64,000 nucleotides of DNA from assembly GCA_046563655.1 (NCBI GenBank), contig CM102283.1, positions 7,626,001 to 7,690,000 on the forward strand, written 5' to 3'. Below are positions 2,169 through 52,383 of the stretch, in pieces. The DNA comes from Yuukianura sp. NJ FZ-2021 (taxonomy: Eukaryota). Positions within the stretch are counted from its first letter, which is position 1. The number at the start of each line of letters is the position of its first letter. A program made the translations under genes and the position numbers. Below the pieces are notes generated by a model. That model did not search any database. It was given only the letters and a program-made list of their open reading frames with translations, and was not told the DNA's origin.

Positions 2169-4338
2169 TTACGATCCGGATCGGCGGCGCGGACTGCGCG
2201 AGATACTGCGTGACCGACTTCTTGAAACCCGACGACGTGGTGATCTTGAGTAACTGATGATGAAAACAAAATTAAAGAAATCGATTAATGTCAGTTCAGT
2301 TGAAACTTTCAATCAACATGTCCCTGTCATTTGGAAATTTTATACAGAAGGAATACTTCCATTTTTCGAAATTTCAAAAAACAAGAACAAGAGGGACTTA
2401 CATACCCCTGTTGTCCTTAGAATGGAAATATTTTTTCTGATATTAAAGTGAATATAAAATGAAAATCATAAAATGTGTCTCATCGTTAGAAGAAGAAGAA
2501 AGAAGATAATATTGCATAGGCTGATTGAATTCCTGGGTTGAATTTGGATTTAGCCAAGTTCGAAACTGAGACGTAGTACTAAAGATGGTAATTTTGAAAC
2601 GCTGGACGGGGAAGAAAGAATCGCTGCGTGCCGGGTGATTTCTGATTTTGGATTTAGTTGCTTAAAATGAGGTTTTGCAATTTGTTAAGGTAGGGCTGGG
2701 GATGGAAGTTGAGCTGTGTGACTCTTAAGACGTTGACAGACGCTTAAAGTGGGTGTGAGACTAAAAATAAAGAAATTAAATTACACAATTTCTCATTCCG
2801 GTTGACTTTAAAATGAGTGAGACTGGACTCCCTGGCAGCGATGTCAACGTTGTGTTGGTGTTGAAAAGCTAAAAGTTAGGGATGTGTCTACTGCGCAGCA
2901 GAACGTGGGCGGAAGGAAGTGGTGGAGGTGTAGATCTTTATGCTGCTCGTTGTCGGAAGTTAAGGCAGCTCTGTACTCGTAGGGTACTGAAACTGATGGA
3001 CAACCACCAAAAGTAGAGGATGTCAGAGTTTAGCAGTCCACTCGAGTGCCAAGTTGGGACGAGACGAGTAGTAGCTTTTACTAATCGTCCTAAATTGTCC
3101 TACAATTAGCGTAGTCTGAGCTGCGGTCGTGGGGTGGTAATAGCCGAAGAGCAGTGGAGGAGCTGGCGTTGACCAATTCGATGTCGTGGAGTAGCTTTGG
3201 TTGAGATATGCTATCAAAGTCACCAACGAAGAATTTTCAATCAGTTAAAATATTCCTTAACCAGTACTTTGGCTTTGGACCTAAGCTAAAAGCCATTTCA
3301 GACCTGATTTCCTGATGATCAGGCAGGATATCAGGAAATCAGGCAGTTGGGCTTAAGTTAAAATGTTAAAACTGATTGGGTTAGTTAGAGTTTTAACTTC
3401 TTCACTCATCTCAACCAGCAGTATGGAATACGAATATGGGATATGATCAATCAGTTGCCCTAACCGTGAATCATGAACTTTACGTTTTTGAAACTTGGCA
3501 TTTCAAGTTGGCAGCAAAAATAGGAATTGATTAAAACGAAACAAAATAAAGTGTGTTAAATGGGGAGATTAATAAATTCGGATGAACGTAATAGAAATAG
3601 ATGTAACGTGAACACTCACCTCCTGTCAAATCGTCGTCCCCCTCGGGGAGGTCCGCCTCCACCACCACTACCTCCGCGACCTCGAGTTCTTCCACTGGAC
3701 ATTTCAACTCTAATTAGAAACATGCAATTGATGAAACTGCCTTGTGTGCAACGCTTTACATTCACAATTTAATGTCACTAACCTGACCCGAACTCCGCAC
3801 ATGCGTCTAAAAAGTGAAAAGATAATCAATGTTTAGTTAATGGTTAATGCAAACATTTCCTCCGTCAGAATTAAACACTTACGTTCCGTCCAAATGTCGA
3901 ACAGCATCTTCAGCATCTCGCGGATCCTCGAACTCGATGAATGCAAAACCCGGTGGATTCCTGTTGTAAGTAAAGACAGAAGATACTTTATAAAGTTTAT
4001 AAACAGTGTATCAACCCGGGTAGTTAATCAAGTTTATACTGATGTTATAGTTATGATCATACTAATCTTACCTTGCAACCCAAACGTTCTTGAGTGGTCC
4101 GTACTTGTTGAACGCCGACTCTAACTCCTGTTTGGAGGCATTGTTTCCCAAACTTCCTACATAAACCTAACCACCACAATACGTAAAACATCCATTAAAT
4201 TCTTCATTCAACACTCAAGTAATCGTCTAATTCCAAACGGACTACACAGAGACTTAAAAATTAAGCAAATTAAGACAGTGTGTAACTAACTCTGCTAACC
4301 TTGCAACTCAAATCCCAGTCTCGATGTCGGGAGCCCAT
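2169..4338 (-). CDS. Rbp1: SR splicing factor Rbp1 / SRSF3-type (RRM, Gly linker, RS domain)
   Basis: Spliced translation: [135 protein letters not shown]. Six coding exons with GT-AG introns. Confidence 0.95.
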
Positions 4339-5139
4339 CTTTTCGTCCTAGAGGAAATTAGCCCGTCAATTAGTATCCAATTAGGCAAGAAACGTTACAA
4401 TATCGAATTTAAGATGATAAATAAAGTTGATTGAGTTCGTACTTCCATTATTTACCTGTTTTGGTATCTGTTCAATTCGTCAATTGATGAAACCAAAGTT
4501 TGAGTGTCCAGACACAGCAGTTAAGATAGTATACCCCAAATGAAGCTAAATCAATCAATCTCTGAATCTACAAAATAATTATACTTTGAAACTAAAACTT
4601 GGAGTGACCGTTTGAACCTGATAAACGACGAAGATTCTATTTCTGACTCAGAATTTACAGGCAGAACGGCAGAAGAGGTGTGAAAAATTAACAAAGTGAG
4701 TGCTTGTAAAAAGTGGGCGAGGAAAAGAAGCGAGGGAGCAGAAAAAGAAATTGAGTTGGCGCATGCGCTCTCCGGAGACGCCACTCTCAAGCGTCTGTCT
4801 TGCTTATTTCAACGAAAACAATATTGAGGATGTAATTATAATTTCAATTTACATAAAAGTATTTAGTTAATAGTGAAATTGTTCCATTGAATTTAAATTC
4901 GACCAGACGACATTTCGGTAATTTGGGAATTACAAAAGCCATACGGTGTTAGATTTGACAACCACGTTTAAGAAATCTCGGAGATGGACGTGTTGGGCTC
5001 TTCAATCTTAGCATGTTTATATTTGTACATAAATTAATGTTTTTTTTCCATTTCAACAACATGATTAATTAAAAATTAATTTGGACTACTGTTTTTTTTT
5101 CATAACAACTTTCAAATTCCCTCCAGGACGTGAATGAAC

Positions 5140-5859
5140 TCATGAGGAAATTATGGCGGGTACGGTAAAACACATTTCGTTGACCCCTTCGTCACTAATC
5201 TTCACGCGGAGGGTTACCGGCTATAGAATATATTAAATATTATATTAATTCATTTAATATTATTTAAATATTGTTTATTTTATTTTAATAAGTGATATAC
5301 CCCTGTTCCAAGGTCCCTTGACACATCCAAGGGATATGCAAACGCTCCAATCATTCCCTCCTCCACGTCCACCGCCGTATTCAAGCTGATGATCGTTTTG
5401 TTCCGTCGTGCTCCCAAAACCACAAATTCAGCTTCCAGATTTTTATGAAAATTCTCTGAAAAAAACACATAATTTAAATTTAAACGTTTAAATTTTTTAA
5501 ATTCTGAAGTTACTTGAACGGAAGTAGGCTGCCAACATGTAGTTCTGTCCTACAGTAAAATTGCAGGGAGGATGCGGACAGTCTGGAATTGTCACTTGTA
5601 GGATCTCTCCCTCGGAACCTTAGTTAAGAATTAGTTAATTTAAATATTAAAAGTTAAAGTATAATGTGACCTTCTGACCCAAGGATTTGAGCTTTGAAAG
5701 TTTTAGAAAAAAAATTGTGAAAACATTACCGCAATTTGTAAAATTTCGAACCACGCTTCGTCTCACATCCGGTCGTACGCGTGGGGTAGTTCCGAAAACA
5801 AGCTGCGCTGCGACAATCCCAAAAACAATTGGGATGAGAAACTTCATCCAAAGTGACAT
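5140..5859 (-). CDS. Secreted ML-domain (NPC2/MD-2-like) lipid or small-ligand binding protein
   Basis: Signal peptide MSLWMKFLIPIVFGIVAAQLVFG, then NFTNC|GSEGEILQVTIPDCPHPPCNFTVGQNY...|PVTLRVKISDEGVNEMCFTVPAIISS*. The Cys pattern and C-terminal 'CF.VP..I' fit the ML family. Four exons. Confidence 0.7.
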
Positions 5860-6428
5860 TTTTTCAAAATTCTTGTTTTATGATTCCAAAGTTCAAAATT
5901 TTGAAAATAGAAGCAAGGGATAACTATTGAACGTAAGATGAAATTAAAAAGTTGACACTGCGAAGACTCACGGCGAAGGAAATGAAGGAAACGGAGTTTA
6001 TATTTTTGTTTTTAAGCAGCCTTCAAAATTTTGTGCCTGGAAAATTTTTCAAGGATACTCTCATTTGATTAAATTGCTTAACATAGGCACAAGGTCAGTT
6101 TGATTGACTTAATTGTTTATTGTTGTTTGCTACTATTAATTGTGTAGTACAGCCCATGTTCCATGAAATTCTGGAAAAGAGCCTTCTCATTAATCTGTCA
6201 CTTGTAAATACAAATTAACAAAAGAATATGTTAGTTTTTTTTTTCATGGGAAATCCTGTCTTCCTGTTTATGTTTCCTGTTTCAACGCTTTTTGATTAAA
6301 ATTTTGAAACTCATTTTAATAAAAAGAAACCTCAAAAAACGTTTTCAGAAAACGTTTTTTCATCCTCAACAATGTTAACCATAGGCTGTCAAAATCCATT
6401 TTTATAACCAGTAGAAGCCGGTTAAGTT

Positions 6429-7891
6429 TTAAGTACCAGCGTGATTTAGTCTTTCACAAATCATTTTGAAAACTCCTGCCGCTTTTTCAAAATCACTCAA
6501 ATCCGTATAAACTTGAGCCGAGAATCGAACCCACAACTTTCTATTGTGTTTGAACACAAAAGCAAACATGTTATGCTTATTTAGCAATTCATCACGCCAA
6601 AAAAGTAAATCCGAGGCAGGCGCAAGCTCCGGCTTGTCAATTGGCAGTAGTACGTCAACCATGTTGCCAATTTGATCTTCCGTCTGAAGTACTGACGTTC
6701 CTAGTCGCTTAGCCACCAAGGCTCCGCCCCTCACAGCAAGGTTATGTGTATAGTTCGTAAGTGGAGCTTCACCGATTTTGGCGCGAAAAGCAAGCGCTGC
6801 AGGTACAGTCATGTAGGAACTAAAATCCATTGTTCCTGTCCAGTAAAATTCTTTTTGAAAATTGGCGGGCGTGGAATAGTATGTTGAGATTGACGTCGGA
6901 TGGATCCATGCCTTGTGTTGTTTTTTGACGTACATGACGCCTGTTCTTCTAGCGGTGTACAACCATTTGTGACAACTTGCCACGTAGAAGTCTACGTCAA
7001 GGGCCTTGATGTCCACTGGCACGTGACCTACCGCATGCGCACCATCCACCACAATCAAAATGTTTTTGGCTTTTAACAATGGAATTATTCTGGAAATTGG
7101 ATTAATAACGGATGGAACTGACGAAATGTGGTCAATCACTGCAATTCGGATTCCAGAATTTTCGATTTCGTTTAAAAAAATTTCAAATTTTTGAACCAAT
7201 TTGTCGTTGGTTATGGGGTAGTTGACTTTGAATTGAACCAAAGTGACATTCCCGTCGTTAGAGTCCGTGATATACTTTAGCATACCTTGGACTCCTTCGT
7301 AGTATGTACTAAAATGTAAAATTTTGTCACCCCGATGAAATTTTAAACTTCGAAAAATTGCATTTAGTCCTCCCGTTGTATTTGGAACGACGACGAGGTC
7401 ATCGGGGTCATCGGCGTTCAGATATGCTGCTAAATGCTTGCGAACATTTAAAAGTTCATCTAAGACGTCAATTCTCAACCAACGATCAATATTTCTTTCG
7501 GCGCGGTCTTGAAATGCTTGCAACGCAGTTTTAACGTCCCTGGGATAAGGTCCTGAATTTTAAAAAAATCAACTTCAACTTTTAAAAAAATTTTTTTTTT
7601 TTTGAAAACGTTTTAAGGTACCATAGGCTCCATGGTTTAATTGGATAAATTCTGGATCCATCAAAAATTCTTCTCTCATTGCTCGTCCTAGCGGTGGAAG
7701 TTCTCTTACCTTCAATTTCTGTTCTGAAAATTCAGAAAAATTTCAAAAAAAAATTGTGCTTTCGTGATAGGTTTTTTGAAACTTTTAAATTTGAAAAACC
7801 AAAACTTACCGAGTTCATCACCACTGCTAATAGTACTTAATATGCAAAAACCAGAGACAAAGAAGACCCAAGTCCTGTGACAGGGAATCAT
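6429..7891 (-). CDS. PLP-dependent class-V aminotransferase-fold C-S lyase (Egt2/CefD/LolT/L-cysteine desulfhydrase-like), copy 1, with signal peptide
   Basis: Exons 7891-7810, 7723-7622 and 7552-6429 are in frame. Motifs LNHGAYG, IDHISS, DGAHAVG, SCHKW (PLP lysine), WTGTMDFS, WVRFSAQVY. N-terminus MIPCHRTWVFFVSGFCILSTISSG. Confidence 0.9.
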
Positions 7892-8169
7892 ATTGGTGGA
7901 GTAAGGTTAAACAAAATTGAAATTTGAAACTAACTGACCACCGTCATTACTTCAACTAATTAAATTTAACTCAGTTTTCAATTAACATTATCTTAACCTA
8001 CCCCTTGGACAATAAAACTTTAACAATGGAACAATACAAAGACATTGATGTCAAATTATTTTCAGAAATGCGCGGTTTACAAGAGGTCAAGAATTTGTCA
8101 GTTGTCGTCACTGAAAAATGACATTTGAGTTTGCAATTTTTAAATTTATTCAATCAAAATAGCTCAAAA

Positions 8170-9741
8170 TCAATTGCGGCATTGTTCAGTTTTCAATTTT
8201 TTTGCAGTTCCATTATTCAGTTCCTCACAAAGTATTTTGTAAGCCTCTGCAACTTTTTCAAAATCTGTCAAATCGTTATAGATTTGTGCTGAAAATCGTG
8301 ACCAAATTTTCCCATTGTGTTTGTAAGTAGCAGCATAGACGTTGAATCGATTCAGGAGCCCTTCCTCCCAGTACTTTTTGTCAGTAGCTGTGGGGTCATC
8401 GGGGTCATTGACCGGAAGTTGCACATCGACCAGATTGGCAATTTGATCTTCCGTTTGAAGTACTGTCGTTCCAAGGTGATTGGCCACCAGAGCTCCACCC
8501 TTGACGGCAAGGTCATGCGTATAGTTCATAAGCGTCGATTCTCCAATTTTAGCACGAAATGCAATGGCAGCAGGAACGGTCATGTAGGAACTGAAATCAA
8601 TTGTTCCTGTCCAGTAAAATTCTTTTTGAAAATTAGCGGGTGTGGCATAGTCGCTGGAAATTGATGTTGGATGGATAGTTGCTTGATGTTGTTTGTTGAC
8701 GTACATGACTGCTGTTCCTCTGACGGCGTAGAGCCACTTGTGACAGTTTGTGATGTAGTAGTCAACGTCAAGACTTTTGAGGTCAACTGGAATTTGACCT
8801 ATGGCGTGAGCTCCGTCAATGACAACCAAAATATTTTTAGCCTTTAACAGTGGAATCAACTCTTCAATTGGATTTCGAACTCCTGGAACTGATGAAATAT
8901 GATCCACAAGAGCAATCCGAATAGGCGAATCTTCTTGGTGATTTTCGTCCAAAAAGTTTGCAAAATTTTTAACAATTTCGGCATTCGTTATGGGATAGTT
9001 GACTGGAAATTCGATCTTGGTGACATTTCCATCATTGGTGTCCACGATGAACTGGACTAGTGATCTCATCGCTTCATAGACAGTACTGAAGTGGAGGATC
9101 TTGTCTCCACGGTGAAATTTCATACTGCGAAATATGGCGTTCATCCCACCAGTAGTGTTTGGAATGACGACGAGGTCATCCGGGTCATCGACGTTCAGAA
9201 AAGCAGCAAGCTGTGTGCGAACATTGATCATTTCGTTCCACAAGTCGAGTCGCATCCAACGATCCGCATTTCTTTCTGCTCTTGTTTGAAATGAGTTGAA
9301 CGCCGCTTGAACTTCCTTGGGGTGAGTTCCTGAAAAAAATTGAATTATTTTTTTTTACATACTTTTTCAAACAAATTGATGTCAATTACGTTTTTAATTT
9401 TGACTTAAAATTTGGTAAAAATAACCGTAAGATCCATGATTGAGCTGGATAAAATCTGGATCCATGAAGAACTCTTCCCTCATTGGTCTACCGAGTGGTG
9501 GAAGTTGTTTCGGCATTGAATATGATCCCATTGAGGTCACCTCTGAAACAACAATAATCTAATTAATTAAATAATTAAATTCTTATTGTAAAGTTAATTA
9601 CATTTAAAGTTAATTAAGTTACTAGTTTCGTAATAGCTACTTAGCTATTACCATAAATACTTTAGTCTCACCACTCCAAATGAAATTTCGACTACAAATA
9701 ACTGTGGCAATGGCACTGAATATCCAGCTAATCATTGCCAT
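8170..9741 (-). CDS. PLP-dependent C-S lyase (Egt2/CefD-like), copy 2, with probable signal peptide
   Basis: Exons 9741-9672, 9542-9426 and 9329-8170 are in frame. Motifs LNHGSYG, VDHISSVPG, DGAHAIG, NCHKW, WTGTIDFS, WSRFSAQIY. N-terminus MAMISWIFSAIATVICS. Confidence 0.9.
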
Positions 9742-10716
9742 TAATGGCTTTGAGTAATTTCTTATGTAAGTAAAATTTACATTCTAGATTCTGCAGAACT
9801 AAATTGCCTTCGTAAGTTGACATTAAAGTAAACCGAAATGTTAATCTACAACTTTGACCTCAATGACGTCACACATGAATGCTCCACGCCTGCAAGTCGA
9901 TGATAACTTTTTCTTTTCAAAGTTTACAGATTACACTACAGTTTCAACTTAACTTATACTTCAGCTTTGCTTCACTAATTTTACAGAGGAGGCTTTAAAA
10001 GTGAAAACTTAATAAGTGAATACTTTCACCTGGATCATTTGACGCCAAAGTCAAGCGTTTGCCAATGATACTAGATGATGCCAGGAAGTAGAGAATACAG
10101 AATTTTTGCATTTTGTTGTTTTAAAAGCACTGTTTCAGCTGATACCAAGGATACTGTTAAAAAGCCTAATTTTCAAAAACCTAAGTTTTTGTTGTCGGCA
10201 ATTGGGATTTATAACACAAAGAAATGCCTGAAATAATTGGATTACAAAGTAGTAGTGACCTCTGTAGGAGGTCAAGTGTTATGCTTATCATGCTAACCAC
10301 TTAGGCTCAAGGTGAAGCATCGCAATCAGTTTTCATTGTAACATGTCAAACGATGCCGTTTGATCCTAAGTATAGTTTCGATAACAAATTTACGAAAAAA
10401 GGATTAATTTAGTATATCAAAAAATCACCCCTCAAAAAAATTAATCACGATTTGCTTCTGTAATAAACAGATTTTATTTCGGAATTGGTTCACCTTCATT
10501 TAAAATTAAAATTTAAAAAAAAATACGGAATGAATTAATAGGAAAAGCTGTCGTTGCAACAGTCTAAAAAGCGGAGAGCAAAAATGAGAATTAAAAAAAA
10601 ACATATTTCTAATTCCAAAACTTTAGTATCATGCTGTATAAAAACCTAAAGGTAAAAAATAAATTTTCAAAACCACATTTTTTAAGATTCCAACATTATT
10701 TTTGTAACAAAAAAAA

Positions 10717-11997
10717 CTATTGCTTAATAACTTTTTTATGAACACTTCGATTAGTCACAAACGTATTGATTAGAATTCTATTCCAAAGTTCTAAAAATTC
10801 TTTTTCAAATTGACCGCTATGTTCGACCAGAAAAAACAGAACATTGCCATACGCCTTATTGAAAATTGCTGCTCCATCGACTTCACCGTACTTCTTTTCC
10901 GTACTTAACTTCAAAAGCGTTATATCACTAACGCCATTATTCGGATGATACCGGTACCATTTGTAGGAGAAATCCTCCAAGTATATCGGCGCGTCGGTAC
11001 CGTCCGACTCCGAATTGATCCTTGGTGGAAGTATGCCCGTGATGTAAACATCTTCATGTGTCACCAACAGCTCATTCTCTTCGTACATGCCAGTCAACAA
11101 CCTTGGAACAAGTGATGACCTAATGGTGTACCCCACTCCTGCGCAGTGTTTTGGAAAGTTTTTGCCCGGTATCTGGTCATAGGTGACATGGTATCTCTCG
11201 TAAGGCCCCGTCGTATCTCTAATCATTCCTTCATTGTTGTGAATCCAGCATCGGAAAGTATTGGGTCCCTGGGTGGGCGATACGGCAATTTCACTGGTCA
11301 ATTTGAAAATGTTGACAATGACGTCATCGTCTGTTTTGACCACTAGTTCTGGTTGTGTACAGTACATTGACAGCCATTCATAAGCCATGATTGCTTTCCG
11401 AGTTAGATTTCGGTAGGTGTCGGTAAATAGTCCGCTGACAATGTCTCCATATTGGTCAAATTCCTCATCAATTTTCCCGCTAACTTCTGAATTTTCACCT
11501 GTTTGGCCAATGTGACCAAGGAAAAATACTAAAGCAGCTACTGTGACGTCGTTAAAAGTTTTGATGGATCCGTACGTTTCTCGGATAAGTTTTCGTTCAT
11601 TGAAATTTGCGCGAGCGGACAAAACGACGATGACGATGTTTTTGGTGGACGGATCCGTGAAATTACACAAATCCGGGTTGTTTAGCACAAATGTGGTCAT
11701 TTGCACACGCGTGTTGTTGCCGTTGGTCACATTCCCGCCAAATCTTCTGGGAAAACCCGCAGTTCCAGGATCAGCATAACTTAAAAAAACAGAAAGATTA
11801 AGCACAATTTTTGACAAAAAATAATTTCCCAATTTCAGTAATTGTGTAAAGTATGTTTATACTTACATTTCATTTCCAAGTTGTATAAAATTTCTTGTAC
11901 TGTTGTACCAGTAAAATGTACAAATCACATAAAACCCGCCGAAAAGCAAACAAGGTAGAATACAACAAATTGGACGTTTCACAATCTGACTGAACAT
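10717..11997 (-). CDS. GT31 beta-1,3-galactosyltransferase-like type II membrane glycosyltransferase, copy 1
   Basis: Exon 1 encodes MFSQIVKRPICCILPCLLFGGFYVICTFYW (TM anchor) and is followed by one intron. Catalytic exon has RKLIRETYG, EEFDQYGDIV, FTDTYRNLTRK, KTDDD (DxD), FPKHCAGVGY and EDVYITG. Confidence 0.92.
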
Positions 11998-12626
11998 AAT
12001 GTGTCACTGACCAAGAAAAACGAGGCAAAATTCAAACTTTTATTTTCGTTTTGTCGAATTTGCGCTTTAACTTTGGGGTTGGAGCTAAACTTTAAGTTTG
12101 TGTAAAAATTTGACCTAATTTTGAAACTTTGGAGTGCCAAAGTGCAGATTCCTTTTGAAGAATTGAAAGATGTTAATCCAGGACACATCAGCGGATACAA
12201 ACCTAATTGCAGAGCATTTGAAGCAAAATCGAACTCCTAATTGATGTAAACTACCACACAATTTTTTTTTTCAAATACCACAATGCTAAACTGAACTAAT
12301 TTTTATTTTAATGTTTCCTTTAACGCTTTCCACATCTGTGCCGGTTGGTTGGTATAAAAAGAATCACTTCTAGATTGGCAACTAACTAGGGTACTAAACT
12401 ATAGCAAAACTAGCAAAGTTATCTAAAATGCACTTACGCCAGCTAAACTCCAACGTGGATACACTTGAATCCGTCTAAGAGTCGACTTTTATTTTATCTA
12501 AGCGGTCTCTTTTTACGTTGAAATTACGAAAAGCCCAGAGATTTCCAAAAAATCCCACGGAAAATTAGGTTCTATTTCAAACAATTCAGAACACCGAACG
12601 GGATTTGGAAATATGCAAGCTATAAA

Positions 12627-12820
12627 TTTGTAATGAGTTGAATGCTGTAATTAAAACGAAATTTCTAACTAGAAATTTCCCTTTTAATTTATAGCCTATA
12701 AATGAAAAGTGAAATTTCTAGTTAGAAAATTCGTTTTGATTGCAGCGCAGCATTCAATTCATTACAAAATGCTTTGAAAGCGTCGTCGGCTGCCTTCTCA
12801 AAATCACTCAACTCGTTGTA
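12627..12820. repeat. Fold-back inverted repeat (~65-bp arms) built from, and followed by, a degenerate copy of the lyase 3' end
   Basis: 12627-12694 pairs with 12696-12768, centred on tttatag-c-ctataaa. 12752-12820 aligns to the 3' coding end of lyase copy 3 (~17042-17110). Confidence 0.8.
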
Positions 12821-13482
12821 AAAAGCAAAAAAAAAAAAAACGGTGCATAATTTTCCCGGAACTCGATGCCAGGATGTAGAGAGCATAGAATTTTTGCATT
12901 TTGTTGTTCTGAAGTCACTTTTTCACTTTTTGATTCCAAAGATACGGTTAAGTATTACATTTTATAAAATTTCAGAAATGTAAAAATGTAGCACCTTCAA
13001 CAGCTTTTCATATTGGCGTTTCTAAAACAAGAGAAAGTAGATAGAAGAGTAAAATAAGGATGACAAATATTATTCTTATCATATTGACCACTACTAATCT
13101 TAAACCAAGGTTTTGCAATAAGTTTGCATTGTAATCAAAAGTTGTCATTTGATCAAACGTGTATTTTCAACAACAAAAACAGAGCGGCTTGATTAAAAAA
13201 TTACTATTCGAAAAAAAATTATCACAAATCTCCCTATGTAGTACACACATTTTATTTCGGAATTGGTTCACCTTTAATTACAATTAAAATATAAAAAAAA
13301 CGCAAAGACGAAATTTACGAAAGTTCTCGCTGTAAAAAGCCAGTCAAGAAGTGAGCAGAAATTAAAAACAAAAAGTTTTCCAAAACTTTTAGGTCATAGA
13401 GTAATAATAAATGTCTAAAACCCCACAAACAAACTTTCAAAATCGCATTGTTAAAAAACTTCAATTTTACTTTTTACTAAAA

Positions 13483-14756
13483 CTATTGCTTAATAACTTT
13501 TTTATGAACACTTCTGTTAGTCACAAAAGTATTGACTACAATTCTGTTCCAAAGTTCTAAAAATTCTTTTTCAAATTGAGTGCCTTGTTCAACCAGAAAA
13601 AACAGAACAGTACCGTACGCCCTATTGAATATGGCGTCTCCATTGACTTCACCGTACTTCCTATCCGTACTTAACTTCAAAAGTGTTGTATCACTAACGC
13701 CATTATTCGGATGATACCGGTACCATTTGTAAGAGAAATCCTCCAAGTATATCGGCGCTTCGGTACCGTCCGACTCCGAATTGATCCTTGGTGGAAGTAT
13801 GCCCGTGATGTAAACATCTTCATGTGTTACCAACAGCTCATTTTCTTCGTACATTCCTGTCAACAACCTTGGAACAAGTGATGACCTAATCATGTACCCC
13901 ACTCCTGCGCAGTGTCTTGGAAAATACTTGCCCGGTATCTGGTCATAGGTGACATGGTACCTCTGATAAGGTCCTGTTGTGTTTCTAATCATTTCTTCAT
14001 TGTCGTGAATCCAGCATCGGAAGGAATCGGGTCCCTGGGTAGGCGGTAAGGCAATTTCACTGGTCAATTTGAAAATGTTGACAATGACGTCATCGTCTGT
14101 TTTGACCACTAGTTCTGGTTGTGTGCAGTACATTGACAGCCATTCATAAGCCATGATGGCTTTCCGAGTTAGATTTCGGTAGGTGTCGGTAAATAGTCCG
14201 CTGACAATGTCTCCATATTGGTCAAATTCCGCGTCAATTTTCCCGCTAACTTCTGAATTTTCACCGGGTTGGCCAATGTGACCAAGGAAAAATACTAAAG
14301 CAGCTACTGTGACGTCGTTAAAAGTTTTGATGGATCCGTACGTTTCTCGGATAAGTTTTCGTTCATTGAAGTTTCTACGGGCGGACAAAACGACGATGAC
14401 GATGTTTTTGTTAGAAGGATTCGTGAAATTGCACAAATCCGGGTTGTTAAGCACAAATGTGGTCATTTGCACACGCGAGTTGTCGTCGTTGGTCTCATTT
14501 CCGACAAATATTTCAGGAGAAGTGGTAGTTCCGATTTCAGGATTACTAAAAAACATAAAAAAAAAATTGGTAGAATTTTCGAGAAAAATGTGTAAATTTT
14601 AGTAATTCTGGAAACTATTTTTACTTACGTTCGATTAGAAGCAAAACTTTTTATGGTGTTGGACCAATAAAATGTGCCAATTAGTACATAAAACCCGCCG
14701 AATATCAAAAACGGCAAAATACAAAAAACAGGACGTTTCACAATCTGATTGAACAT
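13483..14756 (-). CDS. GT31 beta-1,3-glycosyltransferase, copy 2
   Basis: Exon 1 MFNQIVKRPVFCILPFLIFGGFYVLIGTFYW is in frame with the catalytic exon. Same GT31 motifs as copy 1. Confidence 0.92.
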
Positions 14757-14939
14757 AATGGATTCGGTTTTTTTTTGTAGAATTTCTGTTTTAACTTTGT
14801 ACGTGGAGCGACACTTTAAGTTTGTGCAAAAATTTGACTTAATTTCGAGACTTTGAGTGCCAACGGCAGATTCAGTTTCCAGAATTGAAGGATGTTAATC
14901 CAGGACGCATTAACGGATATAAACTTAATTGTCTAATAT

Positions 14940-15208
14940 GGATGTTGGATATCGCTAGTTGCTTGATGCTGTTTCTAGCCATACATGACTGCTGTTCCTC
15001 TGTGGGCGAAGATCCATTTGTGACAGTTTGTGATGTAGTAGTTAACGTCAAGGCTTTTGAGGTCAACTGGAATTTGAAATATGGTTTCATAATACATTAT
15101 ATTATATTATGGTGTTGGTCTACCCAAAAACAACCATATTTTTGGCCTTCAAAAGTGGAATAAACTCTTCAAATGTATTGCCAACTCCCGGAACAGATGA
15201 AATATGCC
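14940..15208 (-). pseudogene. Degenerate internal fragment of the PLP lyase gene (HISSVPG ... DYYITNCHKW ... ATIHP region)
   Basis: Nucleotide similarity to ~8670-8900 and ~17500-17730 (e.g. ccatttgtgacagtttgtgatgtagtagt, tttgaggtcaactggaatttga), with an AT-rich insertion replacing the DGAH region. No intact ORF. Confidence 0.85.
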
Positions 15209-15329
15209 AGCGAAAATCGTTTTCAAAAACTTTGGGGTTGTAGTGTATAAAAAGAAAGATCTAAACGCTGAAAAGGAAACCCTTCAAAATCACATTCCTA
15301 AAAACTCGACTTTTATTTTTATAAAAAAA

Positions 15330-16610
15330 CTATTCCTTAATAACTTTTTTATGAACACTTCTATTAGTCACAAAAGTATTGATTATAATTCTATTCCAAA
15401 GTTCTAAAAACTCTTTTTCGAATTGAGCGCCATGTTGAACCAGGAAAAAGAGAACTGTACCGTACGCCCTATTGAATATGGCGTCTCCATTGACTTCACC
15501 GTACTTGTTGTCTGTACTTAACTTCAAAAGTGTTGTATCACTGACGCCATTATTCGGATGATACCGGTACCATTTATAAGAGAAATCCTCCAAGTATATC
15601 GGCGCGTCGGTACCGTTCGACTTCGAATTGATCCTTGGCGGAAGTATGCCCGTGATGTAAACATCTTCATGTGTCACCAACAGCTCATTTTCTTCGTACA
15701 TTCCTGTCAATAACCTTGGAACAAGTGAAGACCTAATCATGTACCCCACTCCTGCGCAGTGTTTTGGAAAATACTTGCCCGGTATCTGGTCGTAGGTGAC
15801 ATGGTATCTCTCGTAACCCCCCGTCGTATCACGTATCATTTCTTCCTGGTTGTGAATCCTACATCGGAAGGAATCGGGTCCTTGTGTAGGTGGTAAAGCA
15901 ATTTCACTGGTCAATTTGAAAATGTTGACAATGACGTCATCGTCTGTTTTGACCACTAGTTCTGGTTGTGTGCAGTACATTGACAGCCATTCGTAAGCCA
16001 TGATGGCTTTCCGAGTTAGATTTCGGTAGGTGTCGGTAAATAGTCCGCTGACAATGTCTCCATATTGGTCAAATTCCTCGTCAATTTTCCCGCTAACTTC
16101 TGAATTTTCACCTGTTTGGCCAATGTGACCAAGGAAAAATACTAAAGCAGCTACTGTGACATTGTTAAACCTTTTGATGGATCCGTACGTTTCTCTTATG
16201 AGTTTTCGTTCATTGAAATTTCTACGGGCGGACAAAACGACAATGACGATGTTTTTCGTCAAAGAATTCGTGAAATTGCATAAATTCGGGTTGTTATGGA
16301 CAAATGTGGTCATTTGCACACGCGTGTTATTGCGTATGGTCACATTATTTGTTCCAAATGTTTCAGGAGAAGTCGTAGTTCCGGTTTCAAAATAACTAAA
16401 AAACCAGAAAAAATCTGTAGAGTTTTTGAGAAAAAAATCTCAATTTTAGTAATTCTGAAACCTAATGTTTACTTACATTTCATTTGCAGGTTGTACAGAA
16501 CTTTTTATGGGATTGTACCAATAAAATGTGCAAAATACATAAAATGCGCCAAAAATCAAACACGGCAAAATGCAATAAATTGGACGTTTCACAATCTGAC
16601 TGAACATCAT
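15330..16610 (-). CDS. GT31 beta-1,3-glycosyltransferase, copy 3
   Basis: Exon 1 MMFSQIVKRPIYCILPCLIFGAFYVFCTFYW is in frame with the catalytic exon. Same GT31 motifs. Confidence 0.92.
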
Positions 16611-17012
16611 GGGTTCCCTTTTTCGTTTTGCCGAATTTCTGTTTTAACTTTGTATCATAGAACGTCTTTAAATGCCGAACTGGACTAATGTTTCCTTTAA
16701 CATTTTCCGTATCTGAGCCCGTTGCTTGATATAAAAAAAATCAGTTCTAGATTAGCAAGTAGGACGCTGAACTATTACAAAAACAAAGCTAGCATAGCAA
16801 ACATAATAACAAAACTAAAAGACACTTCAACGTGGATACATTTGGATCTGCCGACTTTTAATTTCTGTTATCTAAAGATAAGCGGTGTTTCTTTGTACGT
16901 TAGACTTACGCAAAGTCCAGAGATTTCCAAAAAACTCATTCAGAAAAGTATTTTCTACTTCAAACAATCCAAATTTTGAATAAAGTTTCCAAATATTGAA
17001 CCTAAAAATTTT

Positions 17013-18355
17013 CTAATTAGAAATTTCACTTTTAGTTGTAGAATTCAACTCATCGCAAATCGTTTTGAAAGCTTCGGCTGCCTTTTCAAAATCACTCAAC
17101 TCATTGTAAATTTGAGCAGAAAAACGAGCCCATAATTTTCCATTGTGCTTGTGCGTAAGGACAAACATGTTAAACCGATTCATCAAAGCATCGTCCCAGT
17201 AGTCTATGTCGGATGCTGGAGCTTTTTCGGGGTCATTGACCGGAAGTTGTACGTCAACCAGATTGGCAATTTGATCTTCCGTTTGAAGTACTGTCGTTCC
17301 AAGGTGATTGGCCACCAGAGCTCCACCCTTGACGGCAAGGTCATGCGTATAGTTCATAAGCGTCGATTCTCCAATTTTAGCACGAAATGCAATGGCAGCA
17401 GGAACGGTCATGTAGGAACTGAAATCAATTGTCCCTGTCCAGAAAAATTCTTTTTGAAAGTTAGCAGGTATGGCATAGTGGCTGGAAATTGATGCTGGAT
17501 GGATAGTTGCTTGATGTTGTTTGTTGACGTACATGACGGCTGTTCCTCTGTGGGCGTAGAGCCATTTGTGACAGTTTGTGATGTAGTAGTCAACGTCAAG
17601 ACTTTTGAGGTCAACTGGAACTTGACCTATGGCATGAGCTCCGTCAATGACAACCAAAATATTTTTGGCTTTCAACAGTGGAATCAACTCTTCAATTGGA
17701 TTTCGAACCCCGGGAACTGATGAAATATGATCAATAACTGCAATTCGAATTCGCGAATTTGGACTTTGGTTGTCATCCAAGAAATTCGCAAAGTTTTGCA
17801 CAAGTTGCTCGTTTGAAATTGGATAGTTTACGGGAAATGCCAAAGTCTTGACGGTTCCCTCATTGAAATCTTCAATAAATTGTAAAACTGCTTTGACTGC
17901 CTTGTAGCCTGTAGTAAAATGAAGAATTCTGTCGCCTTGTTGGAACTTCATACTCCGGAAGATGGCGTTCATGCCAGTAGTTGTGTTGGGGACCAAGACG
18001 AGGTCATCTGGGTCATCTACATTTAGATAAACAGCAAGATGGCGACGTACATTGGCCAACTCTTCCATAATGTCAAAGTTCATCCAGCGGTCGATGTTGG
18101 CCTCTGCTCGGTCATGGAATGCCAAAAAAGCATTTTTGACTTCCTTGGGATACGTTCCTGTTAAGATTTTAAAAACTTCCATTTTGAAATATGTTTTGAA
18201 ACATTTTTAATTTATGAAATATTTTGAAATATTCGTACCGTAGGATCCATGATTGAGTGGAGTAAAGTCTGGATTCATACAGAATTCTTGGCGCATTGAT
18301 TTGCCAAGCGCTGGAAGTTCCTTTGTTGTCGTATAAGATCCCATAGCTGCCAATT
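17013..18355 (-). CDS. PLP-dependent C-S lyase (Egt2/CefD-like), copy 3; 5' end unresolved (possible start MGSY at 18344)
   Basis: Exons 18355-18239 and 18157-17013 are in frame, with LNHGSYG, IDHISSVPG, DGAHAIG, NCHKW and WARFSAQIY. A further 37-nt exon may lie just upstream (~18426-18462). I found no signal-peptide exon. Confidence 0.88.
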
Positions 18356-19826
18356 CTACAAGTTTTTTGCAATTCGCAAATTTGAATTTTTAGGCTTCTC
18401 GAATTAGTCAAAGGCTTAAAAGTACCTAAAATCGCAATATTTGAAAATTCAATTTGTGTTTTCTAAACAAAGTAAAGTAATTTCAGTTTTCAGAGCTGGG
18501 ATGAAGCAGTCATTCGACTAAATTTTATGTTCAGAGCTTCTGAGAAATCTAAAATTATCACATTAACGGTTCCGCATGTAACAAAATGGAAAGATTTTGA
18601 ATTCGAACCCGTTGGGTTTCAGCAGTGTAAAGCTTTGGTTTACGATTACACAAGGTTAACACTTCGTTTGACCCCGATGACATATGTGTCCTTGCTCTTT
18701 TCAGATTTTCTAATTTCAGACGATGACACATTTGACTCAAATTGCTTTTCATCAGCCAAAACCGTAAAGTTAGAACTTCTAAGTTAGAAGTTAGGATGGA
18801 TCTCAACCGTTGTTGTTAAATTTTGAAGCCGTTTATAAAATTTTTGAAACAAAATTTCTAATTTTCCCCACAAAATGTCTATTTTTTGACGAATTTCTAT
18901 TTGGGCAGTTTAGAACTTTCTTTTAGTGAAAAGGTGAAATCAAAACCAAGCTTGATAAAAATAGCAATAAAATATTTCTGATCTCTTGCCAAAATCGGCA
19001 AAAAAAAAATGAAAATTTTGTTTTGGTTTTGGATGATTTTTTGCAGAGAAGGTAGAAAGTATTACGGCACGAATTCATAACATGACAAGATTTCATATGT
19101 CACGATTTATTTTAAGTGATTACTTCATATGGGAGTTAATCGTGTAAAGTTATAAGATTATAAAAAAGTCAAGGTCCATTTGCACATTTAGTACATGTTG
19201 GCTGATGCTTGGAAGAACAAGATGAAGATGCTGATGGTAATCTGGGATTGGCTGAGATTTTGACTGTGCTAATTGTGCAGGATCTTTACTATATGTTTAA
19301 GACGCAAGTAATTGGCTAAGGTGATCTCTAAACTTATCTTCAAGCCTCTTCAAGTCCTTAAGAACTGTAGGATGCCAAAAGTTTTAAGTTCCATTGGAAA
19401 GATGCAATTCCTTGAAGGTTCGAATACCGTAAAACTTCTAGTAGAAGCTCCGGTGCGAATTTGATTTTAGCGTCTCCAGGTCCAGATTCGGCTGTTACTT
19501 AAGCATTCGTTTTTTTAAACCCCGGCGCTTACTGGAAGTTTTACGGTAAGCCGTTCTGTTTGATCTCTTCTTATTCATGATCACCCACCGCATCTCTTCG
19601 TTTTTTTCTTCCTTGTGATTGTTTATCCTCTTGTTGACTCTTTGCCCACATTCACAGAAATGATTCCACAAGTACACGCGTGTAAGTTGGCAATGACGGT
19701 AAGACTTGCATAAAATTAGGTCGTGTGAATTTCGCATTCTGTCTGTGAGCAAATCAGGTTCTCTTGAGATTCAGTAGTAGCAAGATCATCTTCGGGAAGG
19801 ATTTGGCGCTACGTCCAAAAGGGAAG

Positions 19827-21906
19827 ATGCTGCTCGAAGCATTTTTGATCCTCGTGCTGGCTCTGGTAGCCTTTTATGCGTTCCTGTACATTGATTCCGT
19901 CAATCGCCGAAATTCAGTTCCGCCAGGATTTCCGCCTGGTAAGAATTAAGCATCAAAAGATTTTAAAACAATTTAGTTTGCAAAATTTAAAAAATTTGCA
20001 AACTTGAATAATTTTTACCTACCACTTTTTTGTTTGTTATGGTTTTTTTCTTTCAATATTTTTCAGGACCAACGACACTTCCACTTCTGGACAATTTTTC
20101 GTTTTCTAGTTCCAATTTGAGAAAAACTGTTGAAAAACTACGTGAAAAGTTTGGAGATATAATTGGACTTCAGTTTGGGCCAAAAAAGTAAACTTGGGAG
20201 CTTTTCGAAAAAACATTTTCTTTGATAAAGAATCAAAATTTTGACGTTCTTGGTGGAATTTTTTTTAATGCAATAGCGTCGTGATCATCAGCGATTATGA
20301 CTTGATCCAGGATGCCTACAACACTCCAGCGTTATGTGGCAAGCACGTTTCCGAAGTAGACGCCATCATTACACAGAAAAGCAATTTGGGTAAGACAAGG
20401 TTCTGAAAAAACAAAAATGTCAAAGATCAAGATTGAGAAATTTTGTTTTGTTTTAAAATTTGTTCAAATAGGCAGTACAGCCACTCACCCTGGCGGTTTG
20501 GAAGTTGAATGGAGCAATTTAGAGAGAAAGTTCATTTTGAAAACACTGCGTGACTTTGGCTTTGGACCAAAAACGATAGAGTCCATAATTCAAGAAGATG
20601 TGACAGAACTGATCAACAGTTTCAAAACAGTACTTGGGCGTCCAATTAATCCAACATCTTCACTGCAACTGGCAGTATTCAATGCTCTTCTTCGATTCAT
20701 AACGAGTGACGCTCATCAGCAAAAAGACTCCAGCTTGCAAGTTCTCTGGGAACAGTTTGAAACGTAACCTATTCAAAAATTAAATTTTAAATTGTTAGAT
20801 TTTCAAAATTTTTACAAAGTTTACTTTGTTTTTTTGTAGAGTGATGTCAACTGAAAACGTTCAACTTCCAACACTGCTCACTCGATTCCTGCCGCCTCAA
20901 CTCTCCGGAAAGAAGAAATTGGAAAAAGCGGTGATTTTTGTTGAGCAATTTCTTAGACGAAAAATGGTTGAGCACAAAAATAGTACTGTTGGTACTGCCG
21001 ACGAAGATTTTTTTCTGCGTGACTTCATGGATGCTTATTTAGAAGAAATCAAGGACACGCGTAACTCAACGTCGCCGTTTTACGGTGAAGTTGGTGGTAA
21101 GGATTCCTAAAAAAATTCGAATTTTTGAAAATATTTAACAAAAACTTTTAGAAAAACGTTCATCATTTAAATAGAACTTAACCTGCTACTGTCATGCCTC
21201 AACCTGATTGGCGGAAGTAGAAAAACTTGCACCACAATCGTGTGGGCTTTGTATCACATTGCGCAGGATCCAGCAGTGCAGAAGAAGCTCCAAGAAGAAA
21301 TTGACCGTCATATTGGTATCTACAGACTTCCAAAAATCAAGGACAAATTGACGTACAAACATTCAAAATTCAAAAATTCATATATAATATTTCAAAAACT
21401 GAGAAACTTAAGCCTACTTCTTACCTTATTTCAGGATGCCCTACACCGAAGCCCTTATGCTCGAAACATTCCGAATGACTTCAGTGACTCCATTCGGTAA
21501 TCCACACAATTCCACTGAAGAAGTATCGTTCCACGGTTACACCATTCCGCAAGACACTTTAATCTTAACTAACCTCCATGACGTACATCATGACAAGAAA
21601 CACTGGGAAGATCCAGATAGATTTCGTCCAGAACGGTTTCTAACGCCAAATGAAAAGGAAGTTGTCAAAGCCCATCGTCCAGTGATATGGTCCACAATTG
21701 GGAAACGAACTTCACCAAATGAACTGCTGGGCAGTGATAACTTTTTTCTATTCATAACAAGCATTTTCCAAAGATTTACAATCTCTGTTCCCTCTGATAC
21801 GCAACAAGTGACTCCAGTGGGATTTGAAACAGTGCCGAACTTTAAGGTGGTCATGGAAGATCGACTGGAGTTCCTTGACAGAAATGGAAAGCATGAAGTA
21901 GAGTGA
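19827..21906 (+). CDS. Clan-2 cytochrome P450-like protein lacking the heme-thiolate cysteine
   Basis: Seven in-frame exons: TM anchor, PPGP hinge, LRDFGFG, DFMDAYL, VQKKLQEEID, MPYTEA..ETFR (ExxR) and FRPERF. The heme loop reads WSTIGKRTSPNE. Confidence 0.9.
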
Positions 21907-22029
21907 ATTTGAAAATGGAGGCGGGAGAAGTACTCAGAATTCCAAAAAATATTCTTTTAATTTTGGTTTTTCGTTTTAATTACTAATAAGATTCCAATAA
22001 AGCAGTTTTGCTCGTCAAGACGTAATGTT

Positions 22030-35972: not shown

Positions 35973-36887
<915 letters not shown>

Positions 36888-50900: not shown

Positions 50901-52383
50901 TAAGAAAATTTATTAGTGCATTGTTTAAAATGGAAAACTACTTGTAGTACTTGACAGTATTTCACAACTTCTTGAATTTCTTTGTAATAGTTGGGAGTGG
51001 GTCAAGCACTAATCCATGGCTGTACGGCAGTTTTACGACGTAAATTTTCAGCGAAAGCATACTGGGCAGATTGTGATCGATACAAATGCACGGTATATGA
51101 TCTTCTTAACACTTTTCATTCTTCTGCTATCTTTGCAAGTTGCTTTTTAGCAATAACTAACTGGAAACTTGACTAATTCAATTTGGTGGGTTCTGGGTGT
51201 TGTAGGCTGCGCAGTACATTGGAGAAATTTGTCGCTACTTGCTATCTCAACCGCCTAGTCCCGAAGACACTAAGCACCGCGTGAGACTCATGTTTGGAAA
51301 TGGCCTCCGTCCACAAATCTGGAAAGAATTTGCCAAGCGATTCAAAATTAAAATTATCTCTGAGTTTTATGGAGCCACTGAAGGAAACTGCAATATTGGT
51401 AAGCTCAATTTAGATTTCCAGATTTTGGGAAAGTGAATCTAATTTTTGATTTGGTTTTTGTTTTTCAGTAAATATTGACAATCATGTGGGTGCTGTGGGA
51501 TTCATCTCCCGTATTATGCCATTCATTTATCCTGTGACGCTGATCAAAGTAGATGAAGTAACTGGAGAACCAATCAGAGATCCGAGAACTGGACTTGTAA
51601 TTAGATGCCGTCCAAATGAAGACGGAGAGTTAGTAGGAAGAATTGTAGACAATCATCCTGTCAGAGAGTTTCAAGGGTAAGTGAATTTGAAATTTTAAAA
51701 ATTGAATATGAAAAATTCTGAAAATGCTTCTTTTGAATTTTTGTAATTGAGTTTCTTTTTTTTTCCTGCAGATACGCCGATTCCACTGCAACTAACAAGA
51801 AAATTGTTCACAACGTGTTTCGGAAAGGAGATGCTGCTTTCCGAACTGGTGATATGTTGATGATGGATCAGTTTGGCTACTTCTACTTCAAGGATCGAAC
51901 TGGGGACACTTATCGATGGAAGGGAGAAAATGTGTCGACGTCTGAGGTGGAAGCAGTAGTAAGTACTGCCTGCAATCTCAGAGATGCTGTCGTCTATGGT
52001 GTTGAAATTCCTGGTTCGGAGGGAAGAGCCGGAATGGCAGCCATTTTAGACCCGCAGGAGTCACTAGATTTTGAAAAATTTACGCATCTAATTTCAAAAT
52101 CACTTCCCTCCTATGCGAGACCAGTATTTGTTAGGATAGTGAAGCAATTGGACATGACAGGTAAGTAGTTCAACAGTTCAAGTAACATTTTTTTTATTGA
52201 TATGCGTCGCTTTAACTCTGTTTTCTATTAGGAACGTACAAAATGAAGAAAGTTGATTTACAAAAAGAAGGATTTGACGTGACGAGAGTAACAGACAAGA
52301 TTTATGTTTTCTCCAATGGAAAATATGTTCTTCTAGACCAAGAACTCTACTCAAAAGTGACCGCAGGTCAACTAAGAGTTTGA
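41999..52383 (+). CDS. Fatp: Long-chain fatty acid transport protein / very-long-chain acyl-CoA synthetase (SLC27A1/4-like)
   Basis: AMP-binding [50 protein letters not shown] and FATP signature [31 protein letters not shown]. Upstream exons 41999-42045, 46952-47354 and 48860-49034 splice in frame. Stop at 52381-52383. Confidence 0.95.
42209..43052. repeat. 262-bp direct repeats (42209-42470 and 42791-43052) flanking a ~320-bp insert in Fatp intron 1
   Basis: Near-identical copies running from tccaaagta.attgtcgatagtccacctcc to aaacgtaaacttaatagttatt. Confidence 0.95.
42471..42780 (+). mobile_element. Probable non-autonomous Helitron-like element
   Basis: Ends in a perfect 20-bp palindrome aaagcgattataatcgcttt (42745-42764), 12 nt, then CTAG followed by T, which is the Helitron 3' signature. 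Internal repeated gattataatc/gattaatc. The 5' A|TC end is not clearly seen. Confidence 0.55.

Follow-up and report, generated by a model that had tools for sequence, protein, structure and literature searches.

A 64,000-nt stretch of contig CM102283.1 from Yuukianura sp. NJ FZ-2021 (assembly GCA_046563655.1, positions 7,626,001 to 7,690,000; hereafter the window) carries on its minus strand three genes, here called A, B, and C, that encode pyridoxal 5'-phosphate (PLP)-dependent fold-type-I (class V) enzymes of the Egt2/LolT/L-cysteine desulfhydrase (LCD)/CefD group. They are genuine nuclear genes under constraint, carried by a springtail-like hexapod. Taken as a whole, the evidence makes it likely that this gene family was acquired from a fungus and expanded locally, and that its products are C-S lyases, some of them secreted. 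One old acquisition from a putative donor among Mucoromycota-grade fungi by a soil arthropod would have founded a lineage that both Bradysia, a sciarid gnat, and several springtails now possess. In the genome of the window, tandem duplication, probably together with a neighbouring galactosyltransferase, produced the three genes and a decayed fragment, and genes B and C have recently exchanged ∼450 bp by gene conversion.

The genes were called from minus-strand stop-to-stop open reading frames (ORFs; 6429–7559, 376 aa; 8170–9354, 394 aa; 17013–18206, 397 aa) and spliced models, which yield proteins of 393 aa (gene A, from an internal Met start), 421 aa (gene B), and 416 aa (gene C) (Table 1). 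All three share a common layout, in which a short exon ending in NHG(S/A)YG is followed by a GT..AG phase-1 intron (69, 96, and 81 nt in A, B, and C, respectively) and then by a core exon of ∼1.1 kb; in gene A the core exon codes from PYPRDV to the C-terminus. The single-exon cores and the host-style 5' introns announced by the original prediction were thus both found, with the intron at the same site in each gene. Its set of seven motifs is also complete in each of the three. DGAH, WTGT(M/I)DFS, LAV(R/K)GGALVA..LGT, and RFSAQ(V/I)Y occur in all of them; genes B and C read NHGSYG, DHISSVPG, and NCHKW, and gene A has the variants NHGAYG, DHISSVPS, and SCHKW, along with WTGTMDFS and RFSAQVY. The description of three intact paralogs holds for B and C; gene A, which has no ATG at the MGSY start site of the other two, is intact only with an internal Met (ATG at 7679) or with a candidate exon further upstream (7891–7810).

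A pyrimidine-rich AG acceptor lies a few bases 5' of the MGSY start position in genes A, B, and C alike (in gene A, immediately upstream of 7723). Genes A and B have, 90–120 nt further upstream, an ATG-initiated hydrophobic mini-exon in frame. The candidate exon of gene A joins in frame and free of stops (Kyte-Doolittle maximum 2.33), and that of gene B is in frame only via a CAGAG acceptor (maximum 2.21). For gene C, a hydrophobic-start scan at two thresholds found no signal-like exon within 2 kb upstream.

The gene C core exon was the query for the protein, HMMER, PDB, and ESM Atlas searches and the first row of a 47-sequence alignment used for modelling. Against Pfam Aminotran_5 (PF00266) the three proteins score 100.5, 103.9, and 108.4 bits, with a gathering cut-off of 21.5. 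They fall far below the cut-off of every NCBIfam equivalog: the cysteine desulfurases SufS (82–91 bits vs 475), CsdA (50–70 vs 494), and IscS (34–47 vs 643), PvdN (80–92 vs 650), and EgtE, the bacterial ergothioneine PLP lyase (TIGR04343; 27.8–32.4 vs 400). In the PDB sequence search, Neurospora crassa Egt2 (5uts, 5v12, 5v1x) was best (E 5e-51), followed by LolT (8dl5, 9aza, 9azb; E 8e-41) and by cysteine desulfurases at ∼1e-16. An AlphaFold model built on the 47-sequence alignment (predicted local distance difference test (pLDDT) 95.9, predicted template modelling score (pTM) 0.93) gave the same order, with template modelling (TM) scores of 0.91 for Egt2, 0.88–0.89 for LolT, and 0.75–0.81 for SufS (∼0.80), PvdN, and the cystine lyase C-DES; all top fold matches are class-V enzymes. 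The proposed membership of the Egt2/LolT/LCD/CefD group is therefore sound, Egt2 being closest by both sequence and fold. In the ESM Atlas, the nearest cluster is dominated by Mucoromycota (0.98) and a bacterial cluster scores likewise 0.98; this was treated as a lead at most.

The Schiff-base lysine of (N/S)CHKW (K197 of the query) is invariant in all 47 aligned sequences and is shared with Egt2. The tyrosine at the Egt2 Y134 site is shared as well; it was located from the titles of PDB 5v12/5v1x together with the aligned deposited sequences: the Tyr of HFTTGYKAV in gene C aligns where the deposited Egt2 entries differ (Y vs F), and this column (Y84 of the query) is at least 90% Tyr in the alignment. 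The likeness to Egt2 has limits, as identity is only ∼30%, Egt2 has insertions absent from the window proteins, three paralogs lie in the window, and many arthropod homologs carry a signal-like leader that is absent from 30 of 31 fungal rows (see below). LolT, the second group in the PDB, is a PLP-dependent Mannich cyclase of loline biosynthesis and differs in forming a C-C bond; it was left out of the tree. SufS/CsdA/NFS1, C-DES, and PvdN share the fold and the Pfam family, but the conserved C-terminal block of the window proteins is RFSAQ(I/V)Y and contains no Cys; the persulfide Cys of SufS would lie in the matching region.

The protein search returned 1094 proteins at E ≤ 0.001 among 2943 candidates, and the identities to gene C that follow refer to the best 120 of these. 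The highest belong to three metagenome proteins (58–65%), followed by Bradysia coprophila (54%), Orchesella dallaii (52% and 51%), and Folsomia candida (47%). Below them come Mortierellomycota (40–47%, 31 rows), Glomeromycota (39–42%), Mucorales and allies (35–40%), and bdelloid rotifers (35–38%). NCBI names the Bradysia homolog 'hercynylcysteine sulfoxide lyase-like' and the Folsomia homolog 'lolT1-like'. A HMMER scan of a library of 1.84 billion cluster representatives gave 9815 matches at E ≤ 0.001. Cluster look-ups found Dikarya on one side of the family (Saitoella, Rhodosporidiobolus, Mrakia, Boeremia, Vezdaea, and Yarrowia, with one Yarrowia member named hercynylcysteine sulfoxide lyase) and the protists Gymnodinium, Nonionella, and Pelomyxa together with a limpet on the other. 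Four long library representatives, P0242 (1041 aa), P0245 (806 aa), P0285 (1071 aa), and P0362 (1420 aa), have the lyase domain as part of a larger protein or matched in two stretches and may be fused or tandem forms.

Two trees were computed. FastTree was run on 213 rows, namely 210 of 261 family proteins (those sized 330–520 aa) and the three window models, and returned a 19-row clade (Shimodaira–Hasegawa (SH) support 99) in which the window genes are joined by proteins from Folsomia, Orchesella, and Bradysia and by unnamed ones. For a more careful tree, 74 of 399 family proteins were hand-picked per group and combined with A, B, and C (77 rows by 411 columns; LG+C20+F+G4 by posterior mean site frequency (PMSF), 1000 ultrafast bootstraps). 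In this tree the 19-row arthropod clade (support 100/100) belongs to a 50-row clade (100/98) made up otherwise of 31 fungal rows; the sister of the arthropod clade (96/84) is a group of Glomeromycota, Endogonales/Bifiguratus, Mucorales, and Dikarya (100/96), with Mortierellomycota outside. A separate animal clade (100/99) holds 13 animals and two bdelloid sequences, with Balamuthia among them, and a second bdelloid group is placed with protists. Forcing the arthropod and animal clades together (34 rows) costs 153.8 units of log-likelihood (lnL) and is rejected by the approximately unbiased (AU) test (p-AU 5e-05). Nesting within a vertically inherited metazoan clade, the outcome that the original prediction had named as contrary to transfer, was tested in this way and was not obtained; the arthropod proteins group with the putative fungal donor group and away from the apparently vertical homologs of the recipient's kin.

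The distances agree with this placement. Mean identity of the arthropod clade is 40–41% to Mortierellomycota, Glomeromycota, and Endogonales, 34% to Dikarya, and 29% to the animal clade; the first three groups are 40–44% identical among themselves and 34–38% identical to Dikarya. By mean identity, the arthropod clade behaves as one more Mucoromycota-grade lineage. The gene is common to Folsomia, Orchesella, and Bradysia and not private to the window genome; the acquisition would be an old one. The clade has two subclades, one with Folsomia and the window genes and the other with Orchesella, inside which Bradysia falls. The presence of springtails in both and of Bradysia within one suggests that a duplication predates the split of the springtail lineages and that Sciaridae gained the gene by a separate route.

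Leaders were called signal-like where the Kyte-Doolittle maximum over 11 residues exceeded 2 within the first 35 residues, a threshold chosen after the values had been seen. Such a leader is present in 7 of the 19 arthropod-clade rows (Bradysia, Folsomia, two from Orchesella, P0003, P0009, and P0060) and in both extended models (genes A and B). Elsewhere it occurs in 1 of 31 fungi, none of the 13 animals of the animal clade, 2 of 9 protist and unnamed rows, and, among bdelloids, in 3/3 of the first group and 0/2 of the second. The arthropod lineage appears to have gained a secretion leader after the transfer, fungal Egt2 having none, and genes A and B probably carry one. With such leaders on arthropod homologs, the site of action of at least some copies is probably the secretory pathway or the extracellular space, such as that of the gut, and not a cytosolic ergothioneine pathway. 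N-myristoylation at the MGS start was dropped as a candidate, since gene C alone fits the consensus.

From the family, the enzymes are predicted to act by β-elimination on a C-S compound derived from cysteine. PLP would be bound as an internal aldimine to the Lys of (N/S)CHKW, and a cysteine-derived substrate (a thioether, sulfoxide, or disulfide) would form the external aldimine; β-elimination would then break the C-S bond and release a thiol or sulfenic product, pyruvate, and ammonia, and the conserved Tyr equivalent to Egt2 Y134 may act on the leaving group. A more specific proposal is that at least one copy, gene C, which shows no leader, acts in the cytosol as a hercynylcysteine sulfoxide lyase and is partnered by an Egt1-type sulfoxide synthase from another locus of the genome. 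Among characterised proteins Egt2 is nearest in both sequence and fold, its PLP lysine and Tyr134 have conserved counterparts, and the fungal relatives are Egt2 orthologs, as the named Yarrowia cluster member illustrates. The signal-like leaders on many arthropod homologs nevertheless point away from a cytosolic pathway, the three paralogs have diverged to only 66–75% identity, and identity to the N. crassa enzyme is low. A role in ergothioneine synthesis would require Egt1 as partner, and the literature searched links no ergothioneine synthesis to springtails. An ergothioneine enzyme is accordingly judged unlikely, although it is the strongest of the alternatives considered here. A still bolder scheme, in which springtails make ergothioneine with gene C as cytosolic Egt2 beside a fungal-type Egt1, A and B are secreted and cleave sulfur compounds of the fungal diet, and the module has spread among soil-arthropod lineages such as springtails and sciarid gnats, in the way proposed for canonical terpene synthases, would be a long shot.

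Several observations weigh against a secreted C-S lyase of fungal origin. Holding the 31 fungal rows monophyletic, with the arthropod clade as their sister, is only 1.2 lnL units worse (p-AU 0.495), and the two trees conflict, as the sister of the arthropod clade is Mortierellomycota in the FastTree analysis (SH 94) but the other fungi in the careful tree. The donor and, strictly, the direction are for these reasons not fixed by the tree. No fungal protein exceeds 47% identity, whether among the best 120 of 1094 matches or among the 1.84 billion cluster representatives, and the donor is therefore unsampled or the event old. Ten unnamed proteins of the arthropod clade have no taxonomy on record. 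With respect to secretion, 12 of the 19 arthropod-clade rows have no leader. The N-terminal region is missing altogether from five of those; the other seven start 8–32 residues ahead of NHG, among them B and C with MGSY and the protein of the metagenome contig L001 with MGSI. Such MGS starts would yield cytosolic proteins, and a cytosolic form may be real for some copies. The 5' leader exons of A and B are themselves candidates deduced from the DNA. The C-S lyase chemistry is predicted from the family, to which LolT (a Mannich cyclase), CefD (an epimerase), and desulfhydrases also belong.

A vertical origin would draw on the first of these points. An Egt2-type gene of the opisthokont ancestor would have been kept in fungi, springtails, sciarid gnats, and perhaps mites, and lost elsewhere; an arthropod clade sister to all sampled fungi is the opisthokont topology, and the host-like composition and introns of the window genes are as expected. 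However, many independent losses would be required, the widespread animal homologs form a different clade whose joining is rejected, and no further named animal appears in the arthropod clade among the best 120 of 1094 matches. The arthropod clade is also no further from Mucoromycota-grade fungi than these are from each other, and nearer to them than they are to Dikarya, and Bradysia lies within a subclade containing springtail sequences rather than as an insect sister. Vertical descent is thus quite improbable. Since fungal monophyly is not rejected, the fungus-to-animal direction rests on parsimony and distances, and the mean identities together with the patchy animal distribution make an old fungal transfer the most economical explanation. 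The fungal transfer of the original prediction is in this sense upheld, by the grouping with fungi at 100/98 and by the rejected metazoan join.

The springtail β-lactam pathway offers another possible role. Folsomia candida carries isopenicillin N synthase (IPNS) and ACVS according to the main text of its genome paper (PMC5490193), and some relatives of the window proteins are publicly annotated as 'isopenicillin N epimerase', so a CefD-like epimerase could be imagined to serve this acquired pathway. Yet the nearest relatives are fungal Egt2 homologs and not bacterial CefD, Bradysia has the gene too, no IPNS or ACVS domain was found among the window ORFs scanned, and the main text of the same paper mentions no such epimerase or aminotransferase; this role is highly improbable.

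In keeping with the predicted local expansion, A, B, and C are monophyletic and each other's closest relatives in the 77-row tree (100/94). Self-comparison of the array by self-BLAST (6–19.5 kb) showed that the lyase genes are 70–78% identical at the DNA level. They are not all adjacent, as three Galactosyl_T paralogs separate gene B from gene C. The Pfam assignment of these was made on copy 1, and the other copies were assigned by DNA identity, which is 80–88% among the three. A degenerate fourth lyase copy (∼270 bp), ∼75% identical in DNA to the middle of genes B and C, is positioned between two Galactosyl_T copies; the duplication unit therefore probably held a lyase and a Galactosyl_T gene together. 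The duplicated Galactosyl_T blocks exceed the ORFs (10266–12209 matches 13057–14931, and 13375–14801 matches 15219–16654). Genes B and C are 93–100% identical over ∼450 nt of the core exon and 58–74% identical on either side, and dS is 0.105 within this tract vs 1.94 outside it, indicating recent gene conversion. Pairwise dN/dS is 0.17 (A–B), 0.13 (A–C), and 0.24 (B–C), with dS near saturation, and all three genes are under purifying selection.

The array is embedded in animal DNA. GC content runs at 0.34–0.41 along the window and shows no step at the array. The last exon of the triosephosphate isomerase gene Tpi (141 aa) is 86% identical to that of the springtail Allacma fusca, 92% to a metagenome protein, and at most 79% to other named taxa; on this single gene, the host would be an animal, a springtail or a close relative. 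Outside the window, the orthologs in Bradysia, Orchesella, and Folsomia sit on contigs of 2.6–15.9 Mb. The metagenome scan yielded one related locus, L001 (4429 bp, GC 0.45), which encodes a 65%-identical protein starting MGSIGKEM and has the same phase-1 intron after NHGSYG; its opposite strand carries an intron-bearing TFIIH p62 gene (PH_TFIIH E 2e-22, BSD E 2e-10). Three runs of a single sample, possibly the one behind the assembly, gave sequencing contigs over 30 of 30 bins of 4–22 kb. In run X5, from a different study, a 2137-nt contig covers 5162–7271, which comprises the 3' two-thirds of gene A plus the flank, and departs from the window sequence by 84 letters and 29 gaps. Host neighbours, introns, and composition thus all point to physical integration, and the sequencing contigs give it partial support.

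Contamination or a chimeric assembly, with fungal DNA misjoined to arthropod DNA, is hardly credible: springtail samples do carry fungi, and the sequencing contigs are short, with none among the runs examined spanning the whole array, but the three copies are interleaved on one strand with three animal-type Galactosyl_T genes, composition is the same as in the flanks, the contig of the other study bridges gene A and its flank, the short phase-1 intron recurs on the independent contig L001 beside TFIIH p62, the orthologs of three further arthropods lie on megabase contigs, and the fungal proteins among the best 120 matches are at most 47% identical.

Coverage in run X5 has its own pattern. Depth is ∼350 over 4000–7271 and ∼0–13 over 7272–22000, and at 7271, where the 2137-nt contig stops matching, it ends in unlike sequence; the organism of this run seems to share the 3' part of gene A and the flank (∼95% identity) and not the rest at ≥90%. 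Short-sided joints (side of 20–22 letters) in run X3 were set aside as repeats or other organisms.

The case has parallels among soil arthropods. The Folsomia genome paper counts 809 'foreign' genes, 87 of them with a best match in Rhizophagus of the Glomeromycota, and its main text, supplements aside, mentions no aminotransferase, cysteine desulfurase, or desulfhydrase (PMC5490193). The Folsomia ortholog may well be in its supplementary lists. Canonical terpene synthases are reported as common to Sciaridae, Collembola, and Acariformes, a distribution for which transfer within arthropods has been proposed (PMC11665903); neither main text discusses the lyase family. The acquired IPNS/ACVS and terpene synthase genes of springtails and sciarids represent the same kind of event with the same odd soil-arthropod host range, and differ in that the nearest relatives of the lyase are fungal, not bacterial. 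Literature searches found no paper joining 'hercynylcysteine sulfoxide lyase' with 'horizontal gene transfer' or 'Egt2' with 'springtail', and, judged by titles, none of the papers listed for ergothioneine, Egt2, arthropods, and horizontal transfer concerns this gene.

In a group known for hundreds of transfers, the lyase is one more candidate, and its orthologs already bear names in public annotation. With an Egt2-type lyase fixed, duplicated, and constrained in springtails and in a fungus gnat, the list of fungal genes that soil arthropods have domesticated grows by one. Two features are of more interest, a secretion leader apparently gained and the host range. The former would mean that the function changed after transfer, an apparently cytosolic fungal enzyme having become secreted; the latter, springtails plus Sciaridae, repeats that of the canonical terpene synthases and hints that donors were shared or that the gene passed from one arthropod to another. 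The general view is that animals take ergothioneine from the diet (PMC7653990). Through Egt1, a fungal-type thiohistidine pathway in any animal becomes a testable question.

The separate animal clade was characterised by a search with the limpet protein, whose best 120 of 3546 matches define a broad group of the same superfamily. It includes molluscs, Lingula, annelids, a nemertean, echinoderms, hemichordates, amphioxus, tunicates, cartilaginous fishes, cnidarians, sponges, Trichoplax, and bdelloids, and no arthropod is among these 120. Metazoan and plant proteins named 'L-cysteine desulfhydrase-like' or 'isopenicillin N epimerase-like' belong to the same Pfam family and superfamily branch as the window proteins and occur in many marine animal phyla. 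They differ in their separate clade, in a mean identity of 29% to the arthropod clade, and in an N-terminal RDFGSFHSSN extension absent in the window proteins; each of the 13 sampled animals has an extension of this type except Nematostella, where the N-terminal alignment is poor. Balamuthia mandrillaris P0509, an amoebozoan, lies inside the animal clade (100/76 and 100/99) and carries the animal-type GFGSFHS extension. Bdelloid rotifers have two unrelated lineages, P0504 and P0512 in the animal clade and P0093, P0101, and P0108, which have a signal-like leader, with the protists; this suggests a separate transfer for the second. The taxon range of the vertical-looking animal clade (P0311, P0398–P0515) is nearly that of the ovothiol synthase OvoA, which is reported as lost in arthropods, nematodes, and bony vertebrates (PMC4768315). 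The animal-clade enzyme could be the missing sulfoxide lyase of the animal ovothiol pathway.

Table 1. Lyase genes, array elements, and neighbouring genes of the window (positions within the 64,000 nt).
Feature	Position	Strand	Details
Gene A, full extent with candidate exon	6429–7891	minus	class-V PLP enzyme
Gene A core exon	6429..7552	minus	1124 nt including stop; PF00266 E 1.3e-28
Gene A short exon	7622..7723	minus	ELPPLGRAMREEF...NHGAYG; donor GT 7621–7620, phase 1
Gene A candidate first exon (inferred)	7810..7891	minus	ATG 7891; hydrophobic signal-peptide-like leader; GTAAGT donor, phase 1
Gene B, full extent with candidate exon	8170–9741	minus	class-V PLP enzyme
Gene B core exon	8170..9329	minus	1160 nt including stop; PF00266 E 1.2e-29
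Gene B short exon	9426..9540	minus	(VTS)MGSYSMPKQLPPLGRPMREEF...NHGSYG; ATG 9531; polypyrimidine tract and AG acceptor ending 9541
Gene B candidate first exon (inferred)	9661..9741	minus	signal-peptide-like leader; ATG 9741
Gene C, full extent	17013–18344	minus	class-V PLP enzyme
Gene C core exon	17013..18157	minus	1145 nt including stop; PF00266 E 5e-31
Gene C short exon	18239..18344	minus	MGSYTTTKELPALGKSMRQEF...NHGSYG; ATG 18344; AG 9 nt upstream of ATG
B/C gene-conversion tract (approximate bounds)	B 8430..8880; C ∼17260–17710	minus	from DNA identity and dS
Degenerate fourth lyase copy	14938–15206	minus	ISSVPG...NCHKW...QHQAT; frameshift and stop codons
Galactosyl_T paralog 1	10717..11856	minus	PF01762 E 3.4e-27; DNA identity 80–87% to other copies
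Galactosyl_T paralog 2	13483..14598	minus	ORF and DNA identity, 87.7% to copy 3 and 80.6% to copy 1
Galactosyl_T paralog 3	15330..16439	minus	ORF and self-BLAST
Cytochrome P450 exon	21412–21906	plus	Pfam on single ORF
Triosephosphate isomerase (Tpi)	36225–36887	plus	Pfam E 1e-52
AMP-binding / AMP-binding_C gene	49.7–52.2 kb		Pfam on short exons
Flavin mononucleotide (FMN)-dependent dehydrogenase	55.2–57.9 kb	minus	Pfam on single ORFs
Chromo-shadow protein	61303–61755		Pfam on single ORF

The flanks had been described as ptc/Rbp1 on one side and Tpi on the other. Tpi was recovered, at 36.2–36.9 kb and so not beside the array; for ptc/Rbp1, single-ORF Pfam scans of the left flank gave no match. 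Frames rich in RS dipeptides and in RGG at 2169–2312 and 3616–3768 (minus) are consistent with a putative SR-type RNA-binding protein on this flank. Just downstream of gene A, a small ORF (5647–5877, minus) has a hydrophobic signal-like start (MSLWMKFLIPIVFGIVAAQLVFG...) and no Pfam match. To the right of the array, the AMP-binding gene was considered as a nonribosomal peptide synthetase (NRPS) or ACVS and rejected, since it has only AMP-binding and AMP-binding_C in short exons and resembles an ordinary acyl-CoA synthetase. GC skew is strongly positive (up to 0.2) at 44000–54000, the region of this multi-exon gene. At 62289–63857 (plus), five successive open frames of 98–105 aa with a spacing of 318 nt coincide with the lowest GC of the window (0.293) and look like a tandem repeat.

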